Shown piece after piece: positions 2,457 to 53,430 of a stretch of DNA of 64,000 bases. Location: positions 88,281 through 152,280 of IMG/VR virus record IMGVR_UViG_3300040786_000030. One strand, written 5' to 3'. Each line of letters starts with the position of its first letter. The first letter of the stretch is position 1. The DNA comes from a virus. The translations under genes were made by a program, and so were the position numbers. A model generated the notes under the pieces. It was not told where the DNA came from. It made no database searches and saw nothing but the letters and a program-made list of their open reading frames with translations.

Positions 2457-5400
2457 ATGGCAATATTTTATAATACTAATAATCCAACACCATCTTCATT
2501 AAATACTATCAATAGTGTTTCAATGAATATTAGAGATTTTCTATTAACTAAAACATATCTTCAACATATCCTCAAATTGGCACAAGTATAAATGGTAGTC
2601 CTCAAATTGGTGAACCAGTATTAGATACACAATCAAATTTATTAAATACTTACCCACATCAACAACTAACAGGTGATATTCAAGCAATTCAAAACCTCGA
2701 TGTTTTAGGTAGTGTATTGAATGGTCAAGGAATTGGGTTAGGTAGTAAAGGTATTGTACCAAACTTCGATATTAGGGGTTCTTTAGCTGGAAGAATATTA
2801 GGTGCTACAGGTCTTTTAAGCGATACTAAGATAGGAACTATAGCTGGACAACAATTAGCTTTAGCTTTAGCTAATAATGCCACATTTAACGTAGAACAGA
2901 GTTTATTTGGTAAATTAAACGCTGCGGATAATTTATTAAGTTTAGTAAAGAATGGTACACTAGCTGGTTTTAGACCAGATTATAAAATAACAGTACCATC
3001 AAGCACTATTGGTGTTGTTGGTGAGTTCACTAGTAGAATGTTAGGGTTTACAGTACCTAGAAGTTATTTAAATGATTCTGGTTCTATATTTCAAAATGAA
3101 AATAAAGGTGTTGGTAATATAGAACGAGCTAATAGTATGTTACTAAACACTGGTAAGGGTCAAGTTTTATCATTATTAAAAATATAAAAAAGTAACATAG
3201 GTCCAATAAAATCAGTATTTAGAAGTGGATACGCACCAGGTTTTACAAATAATAAAGGTGTTAGACAAATTAGTGAAGAAGAAAGTAATGTTTATGCTTT
3301 TGATAAATTAGGGCAAAATATTAATCTATTAAGTAATTCTATTGATGGTATAATACCAGATTTAATGCATAATAGTGAAGATAATGTCAGTAATTATGGT
3401 TTTACTAGTCCAGAAATGAATGGTACTGGCCCTTATGGTATATTGGATATGATAATAGAAAAGTTAGTGATATCGGTTTTACTTGGACGACAAATAATGG
3501 TGATGCTGTAAATACAACAACTGATAATGATGAAATTATTGGTGATAAAAAATCGTTATTGGTAAAACACAACAATTATTCAATAGTAAAGGTTTGAAAA
3601 GTATGATATCAGTAAAAGGTGATATGAAAGCTGTATCTAATCAATTACAAACAACAAATGGTGGTGGTTTATCTAAAGGTAGTGCGGTATTAAGTGGTTC
3701 AATGTATAAAAAGATGGTACATATGTTGGTAATAATTCATCAGCTAATGATACATACTGTAGAAGTTGGACAACATTAGATAGATACGATACTGTTAATA
3801 AATTAATTAGAAATAATGGTTTAGATGAAAATTCTGTATATGGTAAGAAAAATATACCATATAGGTTTCAAACTGAGGGTAGTGTATTAGATACTAATGG
3901 ATTCCCTAAAATAGCACCATATAGAGATGACCAACCAGAAGACCCTAAAAAATTTATGTTTTCACTTGAAAATTTAGCATGGTCTGATAATATTGCTGAT
4001 TTACCTCAAAGTGAAATTGGTTCTGGTGATATCGCTAATGATAAAAAAAGGTAGGATTATGTGGTTTCCACCATACGACATCACGTTTAGTGAAAATAAT
4101 TCAGTAAATTGGGAATCTACAAATTTTATAGGTAGAGGTGAACCAATATATACGTATAATAATACTGAAAGGTCAGGTACATTAGGTTTTAAGGTAATTG
4201 TAGACCATCCTAGCAACGTAAATGCTTTTAGAGGTGATAAGGGTCCAAGTGATAATTATGTTGCCTCATACTTCGCTGGTTGTGTTGAACCAAATAAATT
4301 TTGGAGAAATAAATTAACAATTAATCAAACTAATCAATTAATTAATGAAAATACTAATACACCACAATCAGCTGTAATTACAAAGAAAAAGCTCCAGATA
4401 TAAAAATTATTTTTTATTTCCCAAATGATAATGCTATAATACCAAATAATTATGAAAATGGTTTAAGTGGACCGTTAATTACTGATTTAATAGATTACAC
4501 TAATAACCCACGTGGAGATGGATATGGTATTGATTTATATAAATCAGATGGTTTTACATCTGGTATTCATCAAAAAGTGGGTTGGTATGATAATACTAAT
4601 TTTGGTTTAAACGCTTCTAGTCAATATTCTACTGGTGTTGTTTTTAATGGTGTCACATATATGGGTTTAAGGGATGTAAGTAGTTTAATGGTGGCTTTAA
4701 ATACGTATATTAATGATGAATGTCCAAGTTGTGTTGTTAATATATCTGGATATGCTAGTGAGCAAGGTGTTGAGAGTTCAAATAATCGATTAATTAAAAG
4801 TAGAGGTGAATATATTACAAATATACTTAAAGGTGGATTATTTAAAAAACTAACAGATTCTGATAAAAATAAAAGGTTTAAAATTGTTGATGGTGGTATT
4901 ATAAAATCTGCTGGTTGTAAAGTTGGAGTTGAAGAAGATATTGACCAAAAGGCTTGTAAAGAGGCTAGAAGGGTTGAAGTAACATTTAAATTTGATGCAA
5001 ATATAGCTGCAGAATCTATAGTTAAACCAAATATTAAAATTAAAACTGAAAATAAAGTGTTAGTCAAAAATAATTAACGAGTATTATAATGAAACATTAT
5101 ATTTTGATAGGTTAAAAGAAAGTGACCCTTTGTTTTTGATTCATTTAGGGAGAAAATTAAATATTTTCACCCAGCATTTCATTCAACTACACCAGAGGGT
5201 TTAAATTCAAGACTTAACTTTTTTATTACAATGTACGAGACAAGGACCAACATCAGAATTACAAGGGCCAAATAATTTAGCATTTGGTAGAGCACCTGTA
5301 TGTATTCTTAGAATTGGTGATTTTATAATACTAAAATTGTTATTGATAATATTGGAATTACGTATGAACCTTTAGTTTGGGATTTAAACCCAGAAGGTAT

Positions 5401-6437: not shown

Positions 6438-9400
6438 TAGAATAGGTTGCCGTTCTGGTAGAACAAAAATAGTAGACCCAAATAAATTTGATAATCAATC
6501 ATCATCCAATAATGTACCAGTACCATTAGAAGATTTGAATATTTCAGTAATATTACAAACGTTTAAAAGGTAGAACAGTATTAAGTGCTGGTCCCAAGAC
6601 TAGCTCTGTTGAAAGTACGGAAGATTTAACTGTTAATTTTATTAATGGTTCTAATATTAATGGTAAAAAGTATTAACAACTAATTATAGTGATTTAACGA
6701 CCATTTTTTGGTGATTCTGAAACAGAGGGGTTAGGTATTACTAATATTAGTATAGATTTTAATAGTTCTATGTCACCTATAGTCGTTATTGATTTTATAG
6801 ATGTTAGAGGTAGCGCTATTTTTCAAAATGAGGCAAACTTAAAAAATGGTACTAATAAATACAGTACTTTTTCCAATTACCATATCCATTATTTGAATTA
6901 ACGATTAAGGGTTATTATGGTAAACCAGTTAAATATTGTTTACACTTAACTAAATTTAATTCAAAATTTAATTCACAAACTGGTAATTTCGAAATAACCA
7001 CAAATTTTATGGTTACACCTTTGCTATGTTATCCGATATGCTTATTGGTTATCTTAAAGCTATACCGTATACAAAGATAGGTGCTGAAAGATATGCTATT
7101 GTTAATAATGCTAGAGCAGCTGTTAATCCACCATTACCAGAGATTTTAAACTTAAATGAGTTAATGATTAAAATCTCTAACATTAATGAAGAAATAGAAA
7201 AGTTTCAGCGGATGACCCTGATTCTGCTTTATTAGGTAATATCGATAATAAGAAAGATATACTATTAACAATAGAAAACAATGTAAGAGCACTTGGTATT
7301 GATTTAGACACTAGAGGTGATACAAATGAAAATTATGAATACATCATATCAACACCTATTAATATAAAAGAAAATAAATCAATAATAGATAAATTCACAA
7401 AAATAGTATTACCAAATATTGAATTATTTAATAAAGATAATCTTGTTGGTTTAGATGTGAGTGCATTTAAAATACCTAATTTAGATAGTCCAAATAAAAA
7501 TTGGGTTGGTATAGATAAAAATAATATAATTAGAAGTACTGATATTGGAGATGTAAACCTTTTAAAATATATAAATAATAACTCTAAAAATATTAGTTTA
7601 TTAGATAACACTAAATTTGATGCATGGGATTTAACTGGTATATATGCTACTATAAACTCGGCTAAAAATGGGTTAGAAGTTAACTATGCTTCAGCTAAAA
7701 GAGTTTAGCGATAAGTGTACAATCTAAAATTAGAGAAGTTATAGGGTTTGACCCAACAGTTAGAAATATTATTGAAGTATTTACAACAGCAGTTGAGGTT
7801 TTATGGAAACTATTTTACTGTATCTAAAAGTGCTGAAGAAGATGTTAATAAACTTAGAGAAAACAATTAGCCCCAAAATTTAAAAGTAAAAAAAATACTG
7901 ATTTAAAATACTTACTGAAATTTTCCATGGCCAGATTATAGAGAAAGTACTGAAGTTGGTTTACATGAGGCTTATACTGAAAAATATTTAGGTGCGACTA
8001 ATGTTTTAACTACACCTACTGATGTTCATGAATTAAATTTTATTGATGACTTATTACGAGCTTTTCTTATCGCACAACAAAAGTTGATGAAGCTATAAAT
8101 AACACTAATAAAGAAAATTGGATACCAGTTAGCCCTGTAGATACCCGTTTATTTAATATTGGTAAAGCACCATATTCTAGAATTGAAGGTACTAGTAAGG
8201 CTGAGGTGATAAAATTATTATTAATTAGGGTATGACTTTTTTAGGTTATACTAATAGTAATTTAACAGGTAAAGAAATTGATACTATGGCTGATAGTGAA
8301 TTTAACGATGTAATGTTAAATTTAAGTGATGATTCCTTGTCAACAGTAAAACTAGTTTAAGTACTTTAACTTTAGATGATTTTACTAGTGTTAAAAGTGA
8401 TGTTAAAATAGATGATACTATTAAAAAAGATAAATCAATAGTATCTTATGATGATAAAAATGAGGTGTATTTTTATCACTATATAACTTATAGTAATAAT
8501 GAAAAATTACCTAACACTATAGATAATTATACTATAGGCACAAGTGTTATACCTATTGATAGTGGTTTTAGTTCTGATACAAATTGGCCACTTTCTGATG
8601 AATCAGCACTGGAGTTTAAAAGTGATTATAATTTATTTTTAACTAACGTTAATGGTGGTAACCCTAATATAGGTAGTAAAGCTAATGGTGGTGTTTATTT
8701 TAAATTAATAAAACCTTCTGATTTTAATACAACAGTATCATTACCAGATACTTTTATCGCTACCACAAGTAGTAAATTTATATTAGAAAAATTAATTGGT
8801 AAAATTGGTTCAAATCCACAAGCTGAAGCTGCTGGTTTTAATGCTTTTGCTGGTAAATACGGGATTCAAGAATTTGAAAACTTAGATTATGGTGAACCTG
8901 ATTTAGATGGTCTACCATTGATGTATGTATTCTATGCTGATGGTGTTCACTCACCATCAGAAACTAGATTAAGTGGTAAATATGGAATAACTTATAATAA
9001 ATCTGGATTAGCTTATCCTAGAACAAATAATGACGTTACTGATTATGATTTTAAAGATAGATTTAAATTTGTTGATTTTAATTATATAACTAAAAACATT
9101 ATAAAGTCTAATGAACACGATAATTATACAAAAAATAGAGCGCTTTTAATGAAAGACTTAAAGGTGATGATAAAATAATGTATCCATATGTTAATCAAAT
9201 TATAAGAGCAAAAGCTAGTGTTATTTCAGTACGTAGTGAAGAATCACATAGTTTATTTGGTTCTAGATTATATTATGGTCAAGAACAAAGTGGATTACAT
9301 TACCCTACTGAAACACCTGATGAAAAATATGAAACTAATAACATAGCTAAAGCATTATTATTTTTAGGTACTTTTACCTTGGAATGGTTTACCGTTCGAG

Positions 9401-12400
9401 TTAAATGAAATCAGACACTTATTTAATATTAGTGGTTTTGTACATGCACCTAAATTATGGACTGTTTATGTTGGTGGGTTAATCTGGAGACATCAATATT
9501 ATGAAAAAATAGTGTTGACCCAATTAGGTGGTTTAATAGTAATGGTACTTCATTTGTAAAACAAATAAATGATATAATTTTTAAACCACCAGGTCATGCC
9601 TATCAATATAATAAATTATATTATGATGATAAAGGTGATATATATAAAAATTACCAATTGAATTACTATCAGGTGATAATAATGTTTTGATGTATTTATT
9701 GATGCATTTTTAGAATTTGTTAATGGACCTTGGGAAACTTTAAAGACAAATTGTGAAATAATTAAAAGTGGTAGTTTAGTTGATTTTGACGAAATAATCC
9801 ATCATTTCTATGATGAAGGTCGTTACGATGGTGATTTAGATGTGTTAGAAACTGTGATAAGAGCACAATTACCTAAACTAATTAATTATGATAAATATAA
9901 AATATTTTCACCAGTTGAAATAGGTAAAGGTAGAGAATTTTTCTTAGAATTTAATAGTGATGCTGTTGGTTATAACCCGTCTAAAGAAATTGTTAAATTA
10001 TTAACAGAGGAAATAATAATATCAAATTCTTCATATAGAACATTTATAAATGATACTAGTAATACTAATAAAATTTACCTATAACAGTAAATCCTGATTA
10101 TTTTGAAAGATATTTTAACCGTATAATTAAGAATTTCTTACCAAATATAACAGCACAAACAACAATTAAAAAAGAACAAGAACAAGAAATTTTGGTACGA
10201 GTAATGAAGAAATAATAAAATTACAATTATATAGAACATGTAAAAATATATATGATAAATGGTTAGGTGGTACAACAGATGTTGATAATTTAATATTCCA
10301 ATGTGGTGAATCTGGAACTAGAAATAATAAAGATTCTGAATTAGCAAACTTTTATCGACCAGGTGACAAACCAAGATTAATTGATAGTTTTAGGTTTGTT
10401 GATAGGGCTTTTGGTGATATAGGTGATAAATTATACGTTAACCCAATACCTGTTAATGACTATTTAATAAATAGCCCAAATACTAGTTTCTATGATGCTG
10501 TGGGTCACTTGTTAACATCAAATAATTTTAATTTCATAGCTTTACCTACATTTATTAACTATAATGATGATAAGGAATTAAACGCTATGTTTGAACCATT
10601 TGAAAATTATGATAAAGCTGTTGAAGATGGTATTTGTGGTCCATCATTTGTTTGTATGTATGTTGGACAAACATCAAAACATTTAGATTTTGGTGGTTCT
10701 AATTATAGTAATGATGGTATTGATTTTCATTGTAATAACGATGGAAACCTTATTGACGTGCCATTAGATTATTCAGCCACAGCTAATGAATATGATAATG
10801 ATGTAGCTGTTTTTAACGTTAATTATTCACAACAAAACCAAAATATATTTAAAGATATTACTTTGGACCAAAATGAATTTACCGAAACTGATGAGTCATT
10901 ACAAGTAACTGATATGATTGCAAGTAAAGGTACTGAAAATAACAGAACATTAGCTGGTCAAAATATTTATAATGTTTATTCGGTTAGAAGTTATAAAGCT
11001 GAAGTTGAAATGTTAGGTAATGCTATGATTCAACCAATGATGCATTTTCAATTAAATAATATTCCAATGTTTCATGGTGGGTATTTAATTACACGTGTTA
11101 AACATAACATAAAACCAAACCACATGACAACAAGTTTTACTGGCGTTAGGGTTAGGTACCCAAAGACTAAATTACTTGATGGTGCTGAGTTTTATATGAG
11201 CATGCTCGATTCGTTAAATCTAACAAATACAATTGGTGGTGGTGGTGGTAGTAGTAGCGTATCACCAATAGTACAAGTAATTAAACGAAATGGTGGTGTT
11301 AACGGTGATTTTGCCAAGGGTAATATTAAAATCCAATAATACCAATATTAAAACAATGGTGTACATTGGGATATTGGTGGTGATAAATTAAAAATATTAT
11401 GAAGCTCAAGCACCATTAATTGAAATGTTAAATGATTGGGTTACTTGGATGAAAAGTAATGGATTTAAGGGTAATAATGGAAATTATATTTCAGTTATTA
11501 GTGGGTATAGAACAGTAGAAACACAAGAAGAAATTAAAAATCACGCACCTAATAGTTCAGCAATACCTGGAACATCTATGCATGGTTGGGGTATTGCGGT
11601 AGATTTAATTTTTATAATAAAGATGGTAAGTTAGTTAAAAACTATATTAATAATAGCAAACCAAACTTAACTGAAGGTTATAATTTAAAAACTAATCCAG
11701 CGCTAGAGTGGTTATATGACCATTCATATCAATATGGTTGGATAATACCAGAGGGTTTAAGAAATGACTTTGGTGTTGAAGAATTTTGGCATTTGAGTAT
11801 CATGGTAAGTCAGCACTTTGTATTTTAAAACAAAGACCATTAATAAAGGGTCATTTATGTGTATTAACTAACCCTATAAAACCATCAGTAATAAACCCTC
11901 AAACCCAGGTACTCCAGCTAAAGAAGCTGATTTAAGTAACTGTAATTATGTATATGTGGGTAATGGTGATGGTTTACCAGTATCTTCACATTTATTTAAT
12001 GGTGATTTGGCACAAAATCAATTAGAGGTTAAGAATTTCTTTAAAGCTTTAGGTTTAACAAAATTACAAACAGCTGCAATTATGGGGAATATTCATTATG
12101 AAAGTGGTTATGACACATCTTCAAAATATCTAGAAAAATCGGGTCATTATAGTAGGGGACTTTTCATGTTTAACACTAGATATTATCAAGCTAGTGACTT
12201 TGGTACGACACTAGAATCACAATTAAATTATGTGTTAAAAATTGGGTATTATAAAATTGGCTTAAATATGACCCACAACAAAGTGTTATACAATTAACAT
12301 TTTATTCGCTAGAGATTTGGAAAGGTGTTATAATTGTCAAGAATTAATACCTTTGAAAATAGTGATAGCGGTAAAGGTAGAATTGGTTTTGCTATAGACA

Positions 12401-12444
12401 CCCATAATAGGTTTAATAGTGCTGGGGATAAATTATTTTGGTAA
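6427..12444 (+). CDS. About 2000 aa baseplate hub protein with C-terminal M15 (VanY-like) peptidase and phage tail lysozyme domains (frameshifted)
   Basis: Hub-like VEMLGNAMIQP..GGYLITRVKHNI. M15B motifs SGYRT, SMHGWGIAVD and EFWH. Tail-lysozyme motif TAAIMGNIHYESG. The start overlaps the end of the upstream gene. Confidence 0.65.
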
Positions 12445-12468
12445 TTTAATAATAAAATAGTATATTTG
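12437..12468 (+). promoter_or_regulatory. Bacteroidota-type promoter
   Basis: TTTG at 12437-12440 and TATATTTG at 12461-12468. ATG lies 4 nt downstream. Confidence 0.6.
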
Positions 12469-12472
12469 CAAA

Positions 12473-13107
12473 ATGATAAAAATTGCAAACATTGTTTCAG
12501 AGAATACGGTAAATGTTTCAGAAATTTTAATGTGGTAAAGACTATGGGTGAAGTAATTCATGGTCTACCTACATTAATTATTGATTATAACTATGTGGAG
12601 AAGAATTACCCTAATTTTGATATTGGGACTAATTGTTTATCTAAAGATTTATATTGGACGTTTAAAAAAACCAAGACAGGGATAAACACGCTGAAGATTT
12701 AAAATTTTTATAAATAAAATTTATGTTGACTTACTTAATAATGTACCATATTTTTTTGTTGATTTAATTAACTACCAATCAAAAACAATAATTAAAGTAA
12801 TTAAAAAATTAATAATTTTAAAAAATTATATACATATCGTAATGGTGAAATGTTATACCTTTATGGTGATAATATAATTTTGGTATTGATTTAAAATTAT
12901 TAAAATTTATGGGGATAAACACCGATAAGGTATTAAATAAAATTAAATTAAAAGTACGGTGTTTTATGATGAAATTGAGATACTTATTGAATATAAAATG
13001 TTTTGATTGAAATCGATAATCAAATCAGATACATACCTTATTTATTATCAATATTCAATGAAAAAAACATTACTATTAGCAACATTCATATTCCATAAGA
13101 GGCTTGA
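12473..13107 (+). CDS. Hypothetical protein (frameshifted, end approximate)
   Basis: Starts MIKIANIVSEN directly after a promoter, with coding-like sequence across indels. Confidence 0.5.
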
Positions 13108-14487: not shown

Positions 14488-14591
14488 TTGTTATTTCTTA
14501 AAATTAATAGTAACTTTGTAAAAAATATCTTAAAAATTATTAAAAAAAAATGAAAATACTACTTGACTTTAATAAATAATTAGTATATTTG
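14488..14591 (+). promoter_or_regulatory. Two tandem Bacteroidota-type promoters upstream of SSB
   Basis: TTG(14488)...TAACTTTG(14511-14518) and TTGAC(14563)...TATATTTG(14584-14591). Confidence 0.65.
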
Positions 14592-48744: not shown

Positions 48745-49687
48745 ATGAATATACTTTTAGTACACATACTTGAATCTTTTTAGGTGAAACTCGAAAACAT
48801 AATGAAGACACAGGACAAATCGCATTTGATTGTCCTGTATGTTCAGGCGAAAAGGTTTAATAGATGGTGATGGTAAAGGTAATCTAGAGATTAATTACAA
48901 TAGGAATATGTTTAAATGTTGGGCTTGCCCTGACACTAACTACATGCATGGCCCTGTAATTAAATTATTAAAAAACATGGTACACCTAAAAACACTAGAG
49001 ACTACTTGCTAGTAAAACCAGATGCTGATATAATAATTTCTAAAGAAAAGAAGAAATAATCGTTGAACTTCAGAGGGTTATCAAAAACTTTCAGATTGTA
49101 CACCTAAAGACTATGGTTATGCTAACGCTATGTATTATTTAAAATCTAGGGTATAACCAATGATATAATAAAAGAATTTAATATTGGTTATACTACACGT
49201 GGACCTTTATAATAGAATAATAATCCCATCATATGATTTAAATGGTGATTTAAATTATTTTATCGCTAGATGGTACCCAAAAGAATACAATAAACTTAAA
49301 TACATCAACCCAAAAGCTGAAAAGCAAGAGATAATTTTCAATATTGGCAAATTAAATTTAGATGCTACAATATATCTTGTAGAAGGTGTAACTGACCATA
49401 TAGTAACACCTAATTCAATACCATTATTGGGTAAGGTTATATCGTCAGATTTATTAGAATTATTACACGATAAAGCTCAAGGGTTAATTGTGATTCTTTT
49501 GATGGTGATGCGTATATAGATGCAAAAATATTATACAAAAGCTAAATTTTGGTGATTTAACTGATAGAATTAGAATTTGTGTACCATCAGAAGATTATGA
49601 CCCATCAAAAATATTTGAAAAGTTTGGTAATGCTGGTATAGTAAACCTTTACGTAGTAGCCATAAATTAAACTACTTAGAATTATAA
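48745..49687 (+). CDS. dnaG: DNA primase, DnaG-like (frameshifted)
   Basis: Zinc ribbon CPVC...KCWAC, RIIIPSY, and TOPRIM motifs LVEG..D and LDGD. Confidence 0.8.
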
Positions 49688-49694
49688 TAAAATG

Positions 49695-49725
49695 TTGTTA
49701 CTTTTATAAAATAATCGTATGTTTG
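49695..49725 (+). promoter_or_regulatory. Bacteroidota-type promoter
   Basis: TTG at 49695 and TATGTTTG at 49718-49725. Confidence 0.6.
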
Positions 49726-49738
49726 CAATAAAAAACAT

Positions 49739-50517
49739 ATGAGTAAAGCAAAACTATGGGTTGGTCCAGTTTATTTAGAACCAATAGCACATAAATATAT
49801 ACATAGAGAAACGAATAAGAAATATTCATCTGTTACTACAACTCTTTCTTCAATCGAACCACATTTTGACGTGGAAGGTGTATCAGCTGCTATCGTAAAA
49901 CAACAGGATAGTGCAAAACAAGAAAGATATATTGACTAACACAAATGCAGATAATAGATTATTGGCAAATGCTTAACGATGAGGCAAATGTTTATGGTAC
50001 CATGGTACATGATATAGTAGAAAGATATTTATTGGCTGATAAGTGGTATTTCCCACCTGATACTGAAGAAGGAAAATTTGAACAAAAGTAATTGATGGGT
50101 ATAATAGCCTTGAAATTGATGAAGGTATAGCTGTTTGGCCAGAACGTATACCATTTGCTGAGCAATATGAATTAGCTGGTATGTCAGATTTAATTATCGA
50201 TATTGATGATGTATATTTTGATGTTTTGGACCATAAACCAATAGAGTATTTAATTTTATAACCCATTTGGTAATGAAACTTTATATAAACCGTTTGACCA
50301 TTTGCAAGCATGTCAATGGTCTATTTATACATTACAATTAAGTGTTTATGCTTATATGTATGAATTAGAATTCCTAAACGTAAATGTCGTCAAATAGTGG
50401 TATTATATTGGGATAAAACTAAAGATACTTTTGAGAAGATACATATTATGTTCCTCAAGCACGAAGCAAAAAAAATTAATTGAATTACATCATTATAACC
50501 TTATGAAAAATGGTTAA
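49739..50517 (+). CDS. PD-(D/E)XK (RecB/Cas4-like) exonuclease (frameshifted)
   Basis: YSSVTT, GTMVH, AGMSDL, LDHKT and YTLQLSVYA motifs. Confidence 0.8.
50451..50511 (+). repeat. Direct repeat copy 1 (recoded exonuclease C-terminus)
   Basis: TTC CTC AAG CAC, then GAAGCA...ATGAAAAAT identical to copy 2 except for one extra A in the homopolymer. Confidence 0.95.
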
Positions 50518-51165
50518 AAAAATCTTTTGATATCTCGATTAAAATAAGAACATAATGGTTGGAGATTACTGAAGTGATTTAATTTCAGTAACTCTTCTTC
50601 TGTTATTGCTGATGAACTAGGTATTATGTGGTCAATATCCCAACCATATTCTGGTGTACCGTTGTATAAACCATAATTATCCCATATCATCCACGGTTAA
50701 AACCTTGATTCAAGGTATTTTCTAAATTCTTTAATACTGCAACTTAATATTTTATTTGTTGTGTTATTTTTATCAAAACCATTTCGTTTAATAGAGTTTC
50801 TTATTAAACATCTAATATATTTGATAATTTAAAAAGAAAATCGGTTTTACTACGTTCTTTAATATATTCGTTATAGTAATTAGGTCTTTTTTTCTAACTA
50901 TCTTTTTTAGTTTCTTTAACTTTATTTGGATTATTTTTAAACCACTCTTTTAGAATTTTGTTAGTTTCTAAATTATTTTTAACCCACTCTTTTTACGAAT
51001 AATTTCTTTTTCTGATTTAGCTAAATCTTTTAAAATAATTTGGGTTGTTCTTAACCCAATTTGATTGTAATTTTTTATTTTTTCTTTATTTTTTTCTCTG
51101 TATTCCTTATTATATAAACGTTTGGCTTCTTTACGTTCTTCTTCGGTTAAATATTTTTTATTCAT
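50514..51165 (-). CDS. HNH endonuclease with basic helical N-terminus (frameshifted)
   Basis: Reverse strand reads ...CSIKEFRKYLESRF.PWMIWDNYG...WDIDHIIP...LNHFSNLQPLCSYFN, a free-standing HNH type common in large DNA viruses. Confidence 0.85.
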
Positions 51166-51920
51166 TTGTATCTTTATTTATTAATGTTCTTAAGTATTCA
51201 GATAATGATAAATCTAAAATTAATAATTTTTTCGTTAAATTAATATATAATTCATCATTTACTCTAAAACTTAACAAATGGTCTTTATTTAATTTTATTT
51301 CTGGTGAGTCCTCCAAATCCATCTCAATTTTAAATGTTTCAGAATCCACAATGAGTTTATATTCTTCATATTTTTAATGTTTTCTTCATCTATACTCCAG
51401 TGTAAATTATTTTAATAAAATTATTTTCATTATCGTTAAATAAATTATTAAAAATGAACTCCCTTTTGTTAGAAGATGCTATGATTAATTTAGAGTTAAA
51501 TTGACTACTTAATACTGGTATGGTATATGATATTATATCATCTAAACGATTAATAAACATGCATTATCGATAATGACATGTGTAATTGCAACCTCTTAAA
51601 CCATCTAAAGTTGAAGCTATTTTATTAAATTACCATTTTCTAATTGTAATGTAGAAACAGTATCTTTTATTTTTTTAAATCTGATATTCTACCATCAAGT
51701 CTAATTTTATTTAATAGATGTTTAGCTGAGGCTAATTTTTCTGTGAATAAAATAATTGTGTTATTACTAGTATTATTTTGTTCTAATAAAGTTTCTATGA
51801 TAAATTCTGCTAAAACAGTTGAAACACCCATCTGTCTAGAGTGTTTTATAAGTGAAAATTTATTAGTATGTAAAGATTCTAATAGTGTTGTTTGATAATT
51901 TTAATTTCATTGTAATACAT
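51158..51920 (-). CDS. Degenerate terminase-large-subunit ATPase domain fused to a ribbon-helix-helix-like C-terminus (frameshifted)
   Basis: Reverse strand reads YQ..LL, KHSRQMGVST, LRG, VIIDNA, LIIASS, LHW...F.IE, then LLSFRVNDELY..L...LSLSEYLRTLI. Confidence 0.65.
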
Positions 51921-51940
51921 TTTAAAAATTTGTTATACAA

Positions 51941-51989
51941 ATAAATATGTGTAAAATCTTGTAAAGACCAAAATTATTTGGTATATTTG
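51941..51989. promoter_or_regulatory. Divergent promoters: minus-strand ATATTTAT into the cassette, plus-strand Bacteroidota promoter toward clpP
   Basis: ATAAATAT at 51941-51948 is ATATTTAT on the minus strand, 20 nt before ATG 51920. TTG(51959)...TATATTTG(51982-51989) lies on the plus strand. Confidence 0.6.
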
Positions 51990-52000
51990 TATTTCGATAG

Positions 52001-52066
52001 TTTTTAAAACATGAAGCAAAAAAATTAATTGAATTACATCATTATAACCTTATGAAAAATAAATAA
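52001..52066 (+). repeat. Direct repeat copy 2 (displaced original exonuclease 3' end)
   Basis: TTT TTA AAA CAT GAA GCA...AAT AAA TAA, immediately followed by the clpP ATG. Confidence 0.95.
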
Positions 52067-52620
52067 ATGGATATAGATTTTAAATTAGAAGATAGAAATA
52101 TTTTTCTATCGGAACAAATAACTCAAGAGTCGGTTAAGTCTGTAATCGAAAAATAATTTTAATAAATGAATCAGATAAAGAATTAACTAAAAAAAGCTAA
52201 AAGATTTGGGTTTAAATATAAAAGTAGTCCAATTGTAATCTACATTGACTCATATGGTGGAAGTGTTTACCAATGTCTTGGGTTAATATCGGTAATGATG
52301 AATTCTAAAACTAAAATACATACAATTTGTTGGTGTAGCTATGAGTGCTGGGTTTATGATATTAATTTCTGGACATAAAAGATTTTCATATAAACATTCA
52401 ACACTATTGTATCATCAAGCTAGTAGTTTTAGTAGTGGTGAACTTAAAAAGATAGAGGAAGATGTTGAAGAAATGAAGATTACAAACACTATTAGAAATA
52501 ATAGTGTTAAGTAGAACAAATATAACTAAAGCTAGATTAACTAGAGTCTATGTTGAGAAAATAGATTGGTTTATTAGTGCGGATGAAGGTTAGAGTATAA
52601 AATAATTAATAAAATTTTAG
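52067..52620 (+). CDS. clpP: ClpP-like serine protease (frameshifted)
   Basis: DRNIFL, IYIDSYGGSV, GVAMSAG (catalytic Ser), LLYHQAS (His) and DWFISADE. Confidence 0.85.
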
Positions 52621-52624
52621 GGTA

Positions 52625-53430
52625 ATGGTAAAAAAATAGTACATCTTGCAGATATTCACATTAGAACAATGAGAATGCATTCTGAATATTTAGATAGTTT
52701 TAAAAGTTTAATGGTAGATTTAAGAGAACTTTAAAAGATTATGAGAGAGAAGAAATTAGATTGTTGTTGCTGGTGATTTGGTTCATCAGAAGATAATTGT
52801 ATCTAATGAACAAATAATGTTGGGTGCTTGGTTCTTAAGGAAATTAGAGGAAATTGCACCAGTTGTTCTTATTGCTGGTAATCATGATTTATTAGAAAAC
52901 AATAAAGACCGTATGGATTCATTGACACCAATGGTCCAATTTTTACCAGATAAAGAGATTAATTATTTTAAAGAGTCTAAGTGTTATTTAGATAATAATA
53001 TAGTATGGTGTGTTTATTCTATTTTTGAGGAAAACGCTAAACCAGATATTGAATCTGCTAGAGTACAATTTGGTGATGATAAAACATATATTGGATTATA
53101 TCATGCAGCACTACTTAACGCTAAAACCGATATTGGTTATGAAATAGACCATGGTGCTGGGTTAGAGATTTTGATGGTTGTGATATTGCTATGTTGGGTG
53201 ATATTCATAAAAGACAATCATTCAACCATAAAGGTATTATAATCGCCTACCCAAGTTCACTAATACAACAAAACTTTGGTGAAAATATCAGTGGGCATGG
53301 TTTTTATTGTGGATGTTGAGCAAAAAATTTTACTGAGCATGATGTTGAAAATAAAACACCATACTACCAATTTAAGATAAAATCAATTGATGATATTGAA
53401 ACTGGTTCTGAAAAATTAACAAATGGGTAG
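52625..53430 (+). CDS. sbcD: SbcD/Mre11/gp47-like nuclease (frameshifted)
   Basis: HLADIH, AGDLVH, AGNHD, LGDIH and YPSSLIQQNFGE. Confidence 0.85.

Follow-up and report, generated by a model that had tools for sequence, protein, structure and literature searches.

SegF, SegG and MobE are free-standing homing endonucleases of T4-type phages. In the yeasts Torulaspora and Lachancea, the WHO elements replace the 3′ end of FBA1 at each homing event and keep the old end downstream as a recombination arm, and allele-specific cleavage has been demonstrated for them, according to the sections of Coughlan et al. (2020, PMC7282813) that deal with homing. Mobile endonuclease open reading frames (mORFs) of fungal mitochondria make gene hybrids, which the relevant part of Beaudet et al. 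(2013, PMC3630166) reports for atp6, atp9, cox2 and nad3 of Glomus; an atp6 mORF hybrid in Allomyces macrogynus is cited there from Paquin et al. (1994). For intron homing in T4, the pertinent section of Edgell et al. (2010, PMC2988022) describes a one-sided double-strand-break repair that ends in illegitimate joins at microhomologies. Here we examined a stretch of 64,000 nucleotides (the window), which is part of a 193-kb virus record (positions 88,281 to 152,280 of the IMG/VR record IMGVR_UViG_3300040786_000030) and in which an exonuclease gene is followed by two minus-strand genes, one for an HNH-type protein and one for a terminase-fold partner, and then by a second copy of the exonuclease gene's own 3′ end. 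We favour, with some reservation, the reading that this is a free-standing HNH homing-endonuclease cassette which carries a donor copy of the last ~21 exonuclease codons, displaces the native copy and likely spreads in the manner of the yeast WHO elements.

Relatives of the locus were gathered as 73 loci from a scan, with a neighbouring SbcD fragment; 62 of the 73 had an exonuclease homologue and 53 had the conserved tail. No close cultured relatives were found, blastn against the phage collection giving clpP-like pieces only, and the exonuclease protein was at most 28% identical to any phage record. The cassette was detected at the same place in L013 and L014, which come from two metagenome ids and are 99.3% alike, while L012, equal in sequence to L015, is the same phage as L013 minus the cassette; i.e. 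the cassette is present or absent at a fixed site among near-identical genomes. Relative to L012, the insert in L013 measures 1505 bp, and downstream of it the two genomes are 99.86% identical (12 differences in 8841 nt). In L013, the tail that follows the cassette does not differ from that of L012 at any position. The working gene, on the other hand, shows 18 differences from L012 in its last 61 nt vs 15 in the preceding 722 nt, with the divergence beginning exactly at the Leu codon that matches the start of the first tail copy in the window. The L013 working tail differs along its whole length, including three residue changes (K to R, L to I and A to N). As the tail behind the cassette equals that of L012 and the differences are piled up in the working tail, the working tail of L013 is a foreign allele that arrived with the 1505-bp insert, and the tail behind is the resident one. 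The replacement 3′ end is found upstream of the nuclease gene, and the native 3′ end is found downstream of it and matches the cassette-free relatives. These observations support a discrete mobile element, which provides the gene with a replacement 3′ end while the native one remains downstream of it. An earlier reading of the window, made from its sequence only, had proposed an insertion into the coding sequence with a supplied replacement tail and had taken the second copy for the displaced original end; the comparison of the junction across related phages that it called for yielded the filled L013 and the empty L012, and the pair agrees with it on both points. Its view that the tail had been specially recoded gives way to that of a foreign allele.

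In the window itself, the last ~21 exonuclease codons are present twice, on either side of the two minus-strand genes (repeat finder and pairwise alignment), and the local alignment of the two flanks scored 92, compared with a maximum of 33 over 200 shuffles. The site is made up as follows:

49739..50517, plus strand: PD-(D/E)XK exonuclease gene (tblastn of the L013 protein, residues 1-260 at 49739-50514, in two frames)
50454..50517, plus strand: copy 1, the replacement tail that completes the exonuclease (LKHEAKKLIELHHYNLMKNG, then stop; repeat finder, pairwise alignment)
50514..51165, minus strand: HNH endonuclease gene (tblastn of the L013 protein, residues 2-219 at 51171-50523; broken by indels in the window)
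51158..51910 (start approximate), minus strand: gene with a large-terminase (T4 gp17-type) ATPase fold and a ribbon-helix-helix-like (RHH-like) C-terminus (Pfam, profile and fold match)
51911..52002, plus strand: right end of the cassette with an outward promoter-like site (conserved block)
52003 (about)..52066, plus strand: copy 2, the displaced native exonuclease tail (repeat finder, pairwise alignment)
52067..52620 (end approximate), plus strand: clpP-like gene, given as context and broken by indels (blastn to L007/L008 7207-7836)

The L013 exonuclease protein matches Pfam PDDEXK_1 (E 2.8e-5) and phrog_298 'exonuclease' (E 3e-18); the gene is intact in L012 and L013, as 260-aa homologues, and broken by indels in the window. 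At L007/L008 7207-7836, a 186-aa open reading frame (ORF) matches Pfam CLP_protease (E 5e-28). Copy 1 closes the exonuclease frame with GGT TAA, and the exonuclease stop (50515-50517) and the HNH stop (50514-50516) are interlocked as TTAA, whereas copy 2 ends with a TAA at 52064-52066 that adjoins the ATG at 52067. Both the duplication around the minus-strand genes and the interlocked stops had been recognised in the sequence-only reading, and both hold. The two copies share a 48-nt identical core and have four real synonymous differences, namely CTC/TTA (two), AAG/AAA and CAC/CAT; their last sense codon also differs (GGT vs AAA). The AT skew of the window is clearly negative in one bin only, 50001-52000.

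The window is an uncorrected noisy assembly rich in indels between 46000 and 57000, and probably throughout. Homologues of the RuvC-like, primase, exonuclease, SbcD and SbcC genes, mapped with intact homologues, are each spread over 2 to 7 frames. Short-read contigs of a public run, referred to here as X1, which may be the sample from which the window was assembled, show 26 gaps against the window over the 1.56-kb cassette piece; single-base indels occur about every 60 nt. As conserved genes are frameshifted by assembly errors, the window is unfit for judging the intactness of its genes. An alternative genetic code (table 4) was tried for the broken frames and rejected, since the frames are still broken under it and the X1 contigs show indel errors. 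The X1 contigs have one A fewer at 50468, which gives seven A in both tail copies, and an A in place of T at 50452, by which the codon before the repeat becomes TAC (Tyr), as in all relatives. Thus, the homopolymer difference that had been noted between the copies is an assembly error, and of the five synonymous differences claimed, four are real and the fifth, at TTC, is a sequencing error for TAC.

It is hardly conceivable that the duplication itself is an artefact, that is, a chimeric join or a mis-resolved repeat in a noisy long-read assembly. Indel errors abound in the window, and the order of the pieces around the repeat is not fixed by the X1 word graph alone, because the 48-base identical core exceeds the assembler's word. 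However, one X1 contig (record 2, 1583 bases) covers 50482-52042 and bridges both cassette junctions. In addition, L013 and L014 have the same structure with diverged copies, so that no mis-ordering is possible there, and the same right junction is seen in L160 and in contigs from three further studies (X2-X4). As to the X1 sample, the contig depth was 98 for the exonuclease body, 35 for the cassette and 49 for the clpP side, and short side branches run from copy 2 to different sequence downstream, a hint that the sample holds a mixture of genomes, filled and empty or different in some other way.

Other relatives present the cassette in further states. The insertion point is common to the window, L013 and L160, and in the last of these the right end of the cassette is followed by copy 2 and then by SbcD. 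In L018, the exonuclease stop is directly followed by what is left of the HNH C-terminus (30 aa, 87% identical), then by the conserved right end and the SbcD start, with no copy 2; this has the appearance of a cassette that has decayed at a simple intergenic site. Both cassette genes are found diverged (40-45% identical) in L041, between another gene and SbcC. The X2-X4 contigs match the terminase-like gene and the right end at ~95% and join them to other resident tails. All three also change to one same other sequence left of 51155, at the HNH gene start, which suggests from sequence comparison that the N-terminal module of the HNH protein may be swapped for another in these relatives.

The ~90 nt from the start of the partner gene to copy 2 are conserved in the window, in L013, in L160, in the L018 remnant and, at a different site, in L041. 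This block includes TTGTTATACAAAT and a promoter-like site on the plus strand, facing the downstream gene, which consists of TTGTAA (51959-51964), a 17-nt spacer and TATATT (51982-51987). Similar TTGACT..GTATATTTGTA sites were identified at 14583 and 56991 of the window, ahead of other plus-strand genes; the motif GTATATTTGTA by itself is not enriched in the window (7 matches vs 7.9 expected). At the right-end junction, L013 and L160 read ..TGGTG joined to T(T/C)AA, and the L018 sequence at the start of SbcD is ATTATGGTCAAAG. The promoter-like site would allow the gene downstream of the cassette to be transcribed again.

The HNH homologue in L013 is an intact 222-aa gene. In an alignment of 6 HNH homologues, the D-H, N and N positions are invariant, and the N-terminal part of the protein, before this motif region, is lysine-rich and repetitive. 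A profile search of PDB with the HNH family gave no nuclease match. Within the HNH coding region, the window has a GC-containing palindromic hairpin at 51040-51059 (TTGGGTTGTTCTTAACCCAA) with a terminator-like score on both strands. The cassette lies outside any intron or intein, as the exonuclease ORF is complete before it, and no Rfam match with E up to 1 was detected in window 49000-53000 or in L013 2500-8200. Likewise, the L013 cassette proteins showed no domain of a recombinase or transposase, in line with the earlier statement that no integrase, transposase or intron was visible.

In order to see how far the pattern recurs, the best 80 of the 407 confirmed loci of the HNH family in the viral collection were fetched, 77 of which were testable, the other three having too short flanks. 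The 300 nt after the HNH stop were aligned to the 1300 nt before the HNH start, with scores above all 60 shuffles and z of at least 4 taken as the criterion. A significant duplication beside the HNH stop was detected at 10 of the 77 testable loci, which correspond to 7 distinct sites (the exonuclease and six others). Besides that of the exonuclease, gene ends were duplicated in primase (70 nt, 76% identical), RuvC-like (120 nt), SbcC, sigma-like (72 nt) and 105-aa genes; one 5′ end was duplicated in the HNH family, that of a 92-aa gene. No flank duplication was detected at L041 or at either of the two L024 sites. The L024 genome, which has two HNH genes of the family, also has SbcD and SbcC each interrupted by a large ORF (309 and 338 aa, at 8525-9705 and 11745-12838), and appears heavily colonised by selfish elements.

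A second nuclease family leaves a comparable trace. L013 carries, at 3199-4337 (compare L012 5794-5905), a GIY-YIG/NUMOD3 gene and a 79-aa gene, both on the minus strand and absent from L012, between the RuvC-like and primase genes. Here the duplication comprises the first ~22 codons of primase together with the region upstream; up to the cassette, the displaced primase head has the L012 sequence, and the working head has a diverged one. The HNH and GIY-YIG cases, taken together, show the same scar from two nuclease families, at both kinds of gene end. An alternative origin would be insertion by an integrase at an att site in the gene 3′ end, or by a transposon with target-site duplication. 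Integrative elements at gene 3′ ends likewise rebuild the gene and leave a displaced copy, and an identical core such as the one common to the window copies would fit. Nevertheless we hold such an origin to be highly improbable, since the cassette lacks a recombinase or transposase domain, the L013 copies have no identical core beyond about 8 nt, and the duplicated stretches elsewhere, which measure 36-120 nt and are diverged, do not resemble target-site duplications.

The partner gene is intact in L013, at 250 aa, and was found at five loci, namely L013, L014 and L041 (viral contigs) and L159 and L160 (metagenome contigs). Its family is small and uniform, with 10 clusters in a large protein collection, nine of 250-254 aa and one of 164 aa. 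The protein matches Pfam Terminase_6N (E 2.1e-6) and terminase PHROGs, and the family profile matches T4 gp17 in PDB (E 4.5e-16). Its AlphaFold (AF2) model (predicted local distance difference test, pLDDT, 77) matches the gp17 ATPase 2o0h in Foldseek (E 9e-11, template-modelling score 0.61). The gp17-type terminase ATPases 2o0h, 3cpe and 3ezk have the same fold and the same motif order, whereas the partner is just 250 aa long, has no nuclease domain, ends in an RHH-like C-terminus and has Asn in place of the catalytic Glu. The last 51 aa show weak NikA-like and CopG matches (E 3e-5 to 0.04, under the cut-offs), which fit a putative ribbon-helix-helix fold.

Asn follows the Walker B Asp in 9 of 9 aligned members (IIDN vs IDE with the catalytic Glu in gp17), and Walker A reads GVST with an invariant upstream Lys. 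The genome's own gene resembling the large terminase subunit (TerL), which lies outside the window at G000:C1:16727-17233, has the same deviant Walker A (RQAGVST) and retains Asp-Glu. Because the deviant Walker A is common to the partner and to this TerL-like gene, only the Glu-to-Asn change argues for lost hydrolysis. The TerL-like match continues into a possible intein start (Cys then LTKDSLILTDKG). As for the partner being a TerL itself, the fold is present but the catalytic Glu and the C-terminal nuclease domain are absent. Perhaps the cassette represents a homing nuclease in two parts that derive from the packaging motor, in which a hydrolysis-dead terminase ATPase-RHH protein would guide or license the HNH protein at its target, much as terminases work with HNH helpers, or would decoy the terminase of a rival phage in co-infection, and which brings its own gene end and outward promoter; we put this forward as an unlikely, speculative reading. 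If it were true, the insertion would be cost-free to the host phage, given the supplied gene end and the outward promoter. The terminase-derived partner is an accessory gene of the cassette.

Returning to the homing reading, the HNH protein would cut the cassette-free exonuclease allele, probably near the Tyr-Leu-Lys-His codons; the cut is placed there because this is where the displaced copy starts in the window, in L013 and in L160, and in each of them it has the sequence of its own lineage from the first base on. The break would then be repaired from a cassette-bearing genome in co-infection, whereby the donor tail, the two genes and the promoter-like end would be copied. The gene body would act as the left homology arm, and the displaced tail would act as the right arm where the downstream genes differ (clpP, an 89-aa ORF or SbcD). 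The duplication probably arose once, when a cassette between the exonuclease and SbcD, as in the L018-like state, would have been fused with a resident tail through a microhomology, for which we propose 5 nt shared by the SbcD start ATGGT(T/C)AAA and the tail (C)T(T/C)AA(A/G). Copy 1 in the window ends with AAT GGT TAA AAAAAT, like the overlap in L046 and L037. The HNH target may alternatively be the overlap of the exonuclease stop and the SbcD start.

The sequence-only reading had gone further and held that the cassette gains immunity by recoding its cut site, so that the few synonymous changes that open copy 1 (CTC AAG CAC) would protect the cassette allele. In that stated form the claim is not supported, and we regard it as rather unlikely. 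It is true that CTC AAG is present in all 3 cassette alleles (window, L013 and L014) vs 3 of 51 cassette-free ones, that the window copies differ at these codons though their middle 48 nt are identical, which fits selection against conversion to a cleavable site, and that WHO elements act so. But L013 and L014 belong to a single lineage, which leaves two events behind the association, and linkage may account for it as well as selection does. The L018 remnant allele reads ATG AAA CAT, and one of the five claimed differences was the assembly error described above. Moreover, among the 53 tail-bearing loci CTC AAG occurs in five, two with the cassette (L013 and L014) and three without it (L035, L036 and L046), and the displaced copy of L160 carries AAG CAC, which makes resistance via these codons doubtful.

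These last two observations also count against the homing reading as a whole, and so do several others. The Pfam HNH match of the protein has an E value of 0.04 and 14.5 bits, under the 21.4 cut-off. No flank duplication was detected at 67 of the 77 testable HNH-family loci. The intactness of the window's own cassette genes cannot be judged, owing to the assembly errors. The window and L013 cassettes are 79% identical, with 76-77% for the flanking gene; as the cassette is about as diverged as its flank, a recent transfer between the two lineages is not indicated. Finally, diversity in the last 87 columns of the exonuclease alignment is not raised (0.22-0.24 vs 0.19-0.35 elsewhere, over 39 distinct alleles), in a test that is weak as the 39 alleles are deeply diverged.

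The same facts could be approached without targeted cutting, if the cassette came to a hypervariable junction by general or illegitimate recombination in co-infection and the HNH protein and its partner serve packaging or phage competition. HNH proteins that assist terminases exist, the partner has a terminase ATPase fold, and the exonuclease-SbcD junction holds many different inserts. We consider this quite unlikely, however. The insertion point is identical in the window, L013 and L160. The pair is dispensable, being absent from L012 and L015, and lies ~120 kb away from the genome's own TerL-like gene. Related HNH genes, moreover, occur on their own at the ends of other genes, again beside a duplicated flank.

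The junction between the exonuclease stop and the SbcD start is hypervariable across L003-L064, with a direct overlap (ATGGTTAA), an SF1 Dda/RecD-like helicase (~460 aa), ClpP or small unknown ORFs at this position. Other inserts include a minus-strand LAGLIDADG gene (L039) and a glycosyltransferase (L052/L053). The exonuclease gene itself is a 595-aa ORF in L020 (5943-7730), and also in L031, L033 and L047, due to a ~335-aa insert right after the catalytic D-W-K. This insert has HN before Thr at its end and two LAGLIDADG-like motifs, with no Rfam intron match; judged by these motifs, it is probably an intein with a homing endonuclease.

The filled and empty pair means that a phage homing endonuclease gene can travel together with part of a neighbouring essential gene, as one unit. 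The displaced gene ends are dated scars, which mark where and how often invasions occurred. Since the pattern is found at exonuclease, primase, RuvC-like, SbcC and sigma-like genes and with two nuclease families, in a freshwater phage clade, it points to a general route for swapping gene ends between phages. The scars are also a source of short spurious ORFs and of apparent recoding in annotations.

Compared with described systems, the mechanism class is already known from yeast and fungal mitochondria. In the account of WHO elements given in the sections of PMC7282813 on their organisation, the endonuclease gene likewise stands behind a full-length host gene with a donor 3′ end, and what moves is the nuclease gene together with the replacement 3′ end that precedes it. 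They differ in having an intein-like nuclease (LAGLIDADG with a zinc finger) and in homing in meiosis, at the yeast nuclear gene FBA1. The phage cassette has instead an HNH gene that is antisense and stop-interlocked, an extra terminase-fold/RHH-like gene and an outward promoter-like site.

Concerning mORFs, the relevant part of PMC3630166 describes an inserted foreign C-terminus with an endonuclease ORF and the native C-terminus downstream; of the two copies, the native one agrees with close relatives and the inserted one has diverged, for the most part at synonymous positions, and all of this is shared with the phage case. The mORFs described there encode LAGLIDADG or GIY-YIG endonucleases, are often in phase with the host gene and reside in organelle genomes, whereas the phage cassette has an HNH gene and separate antisense ORFs.

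The free-standing homing endonucleases and intronless homing of T4-type phages are alike in that the nuclease gene lies by conserved genes, is present or absent among relatives and has its flanking markers co-converted; displaced gene ends are absent from the description in the pertinent section of PMC2988022. We found no description of displaced gene ends beside phage homing endonuclease genes in the literature covered, including parts of PMC2988022, PMC10448857 and PMC8351571, with subscription journals and supplements outside its scope. What is particular to the phage case is the antisense, stop-interlocked layout, the terminase-fold/RHH-like partner with its Asn, the outward promoter-like end and the clean series of filled, empty and decayed sites.

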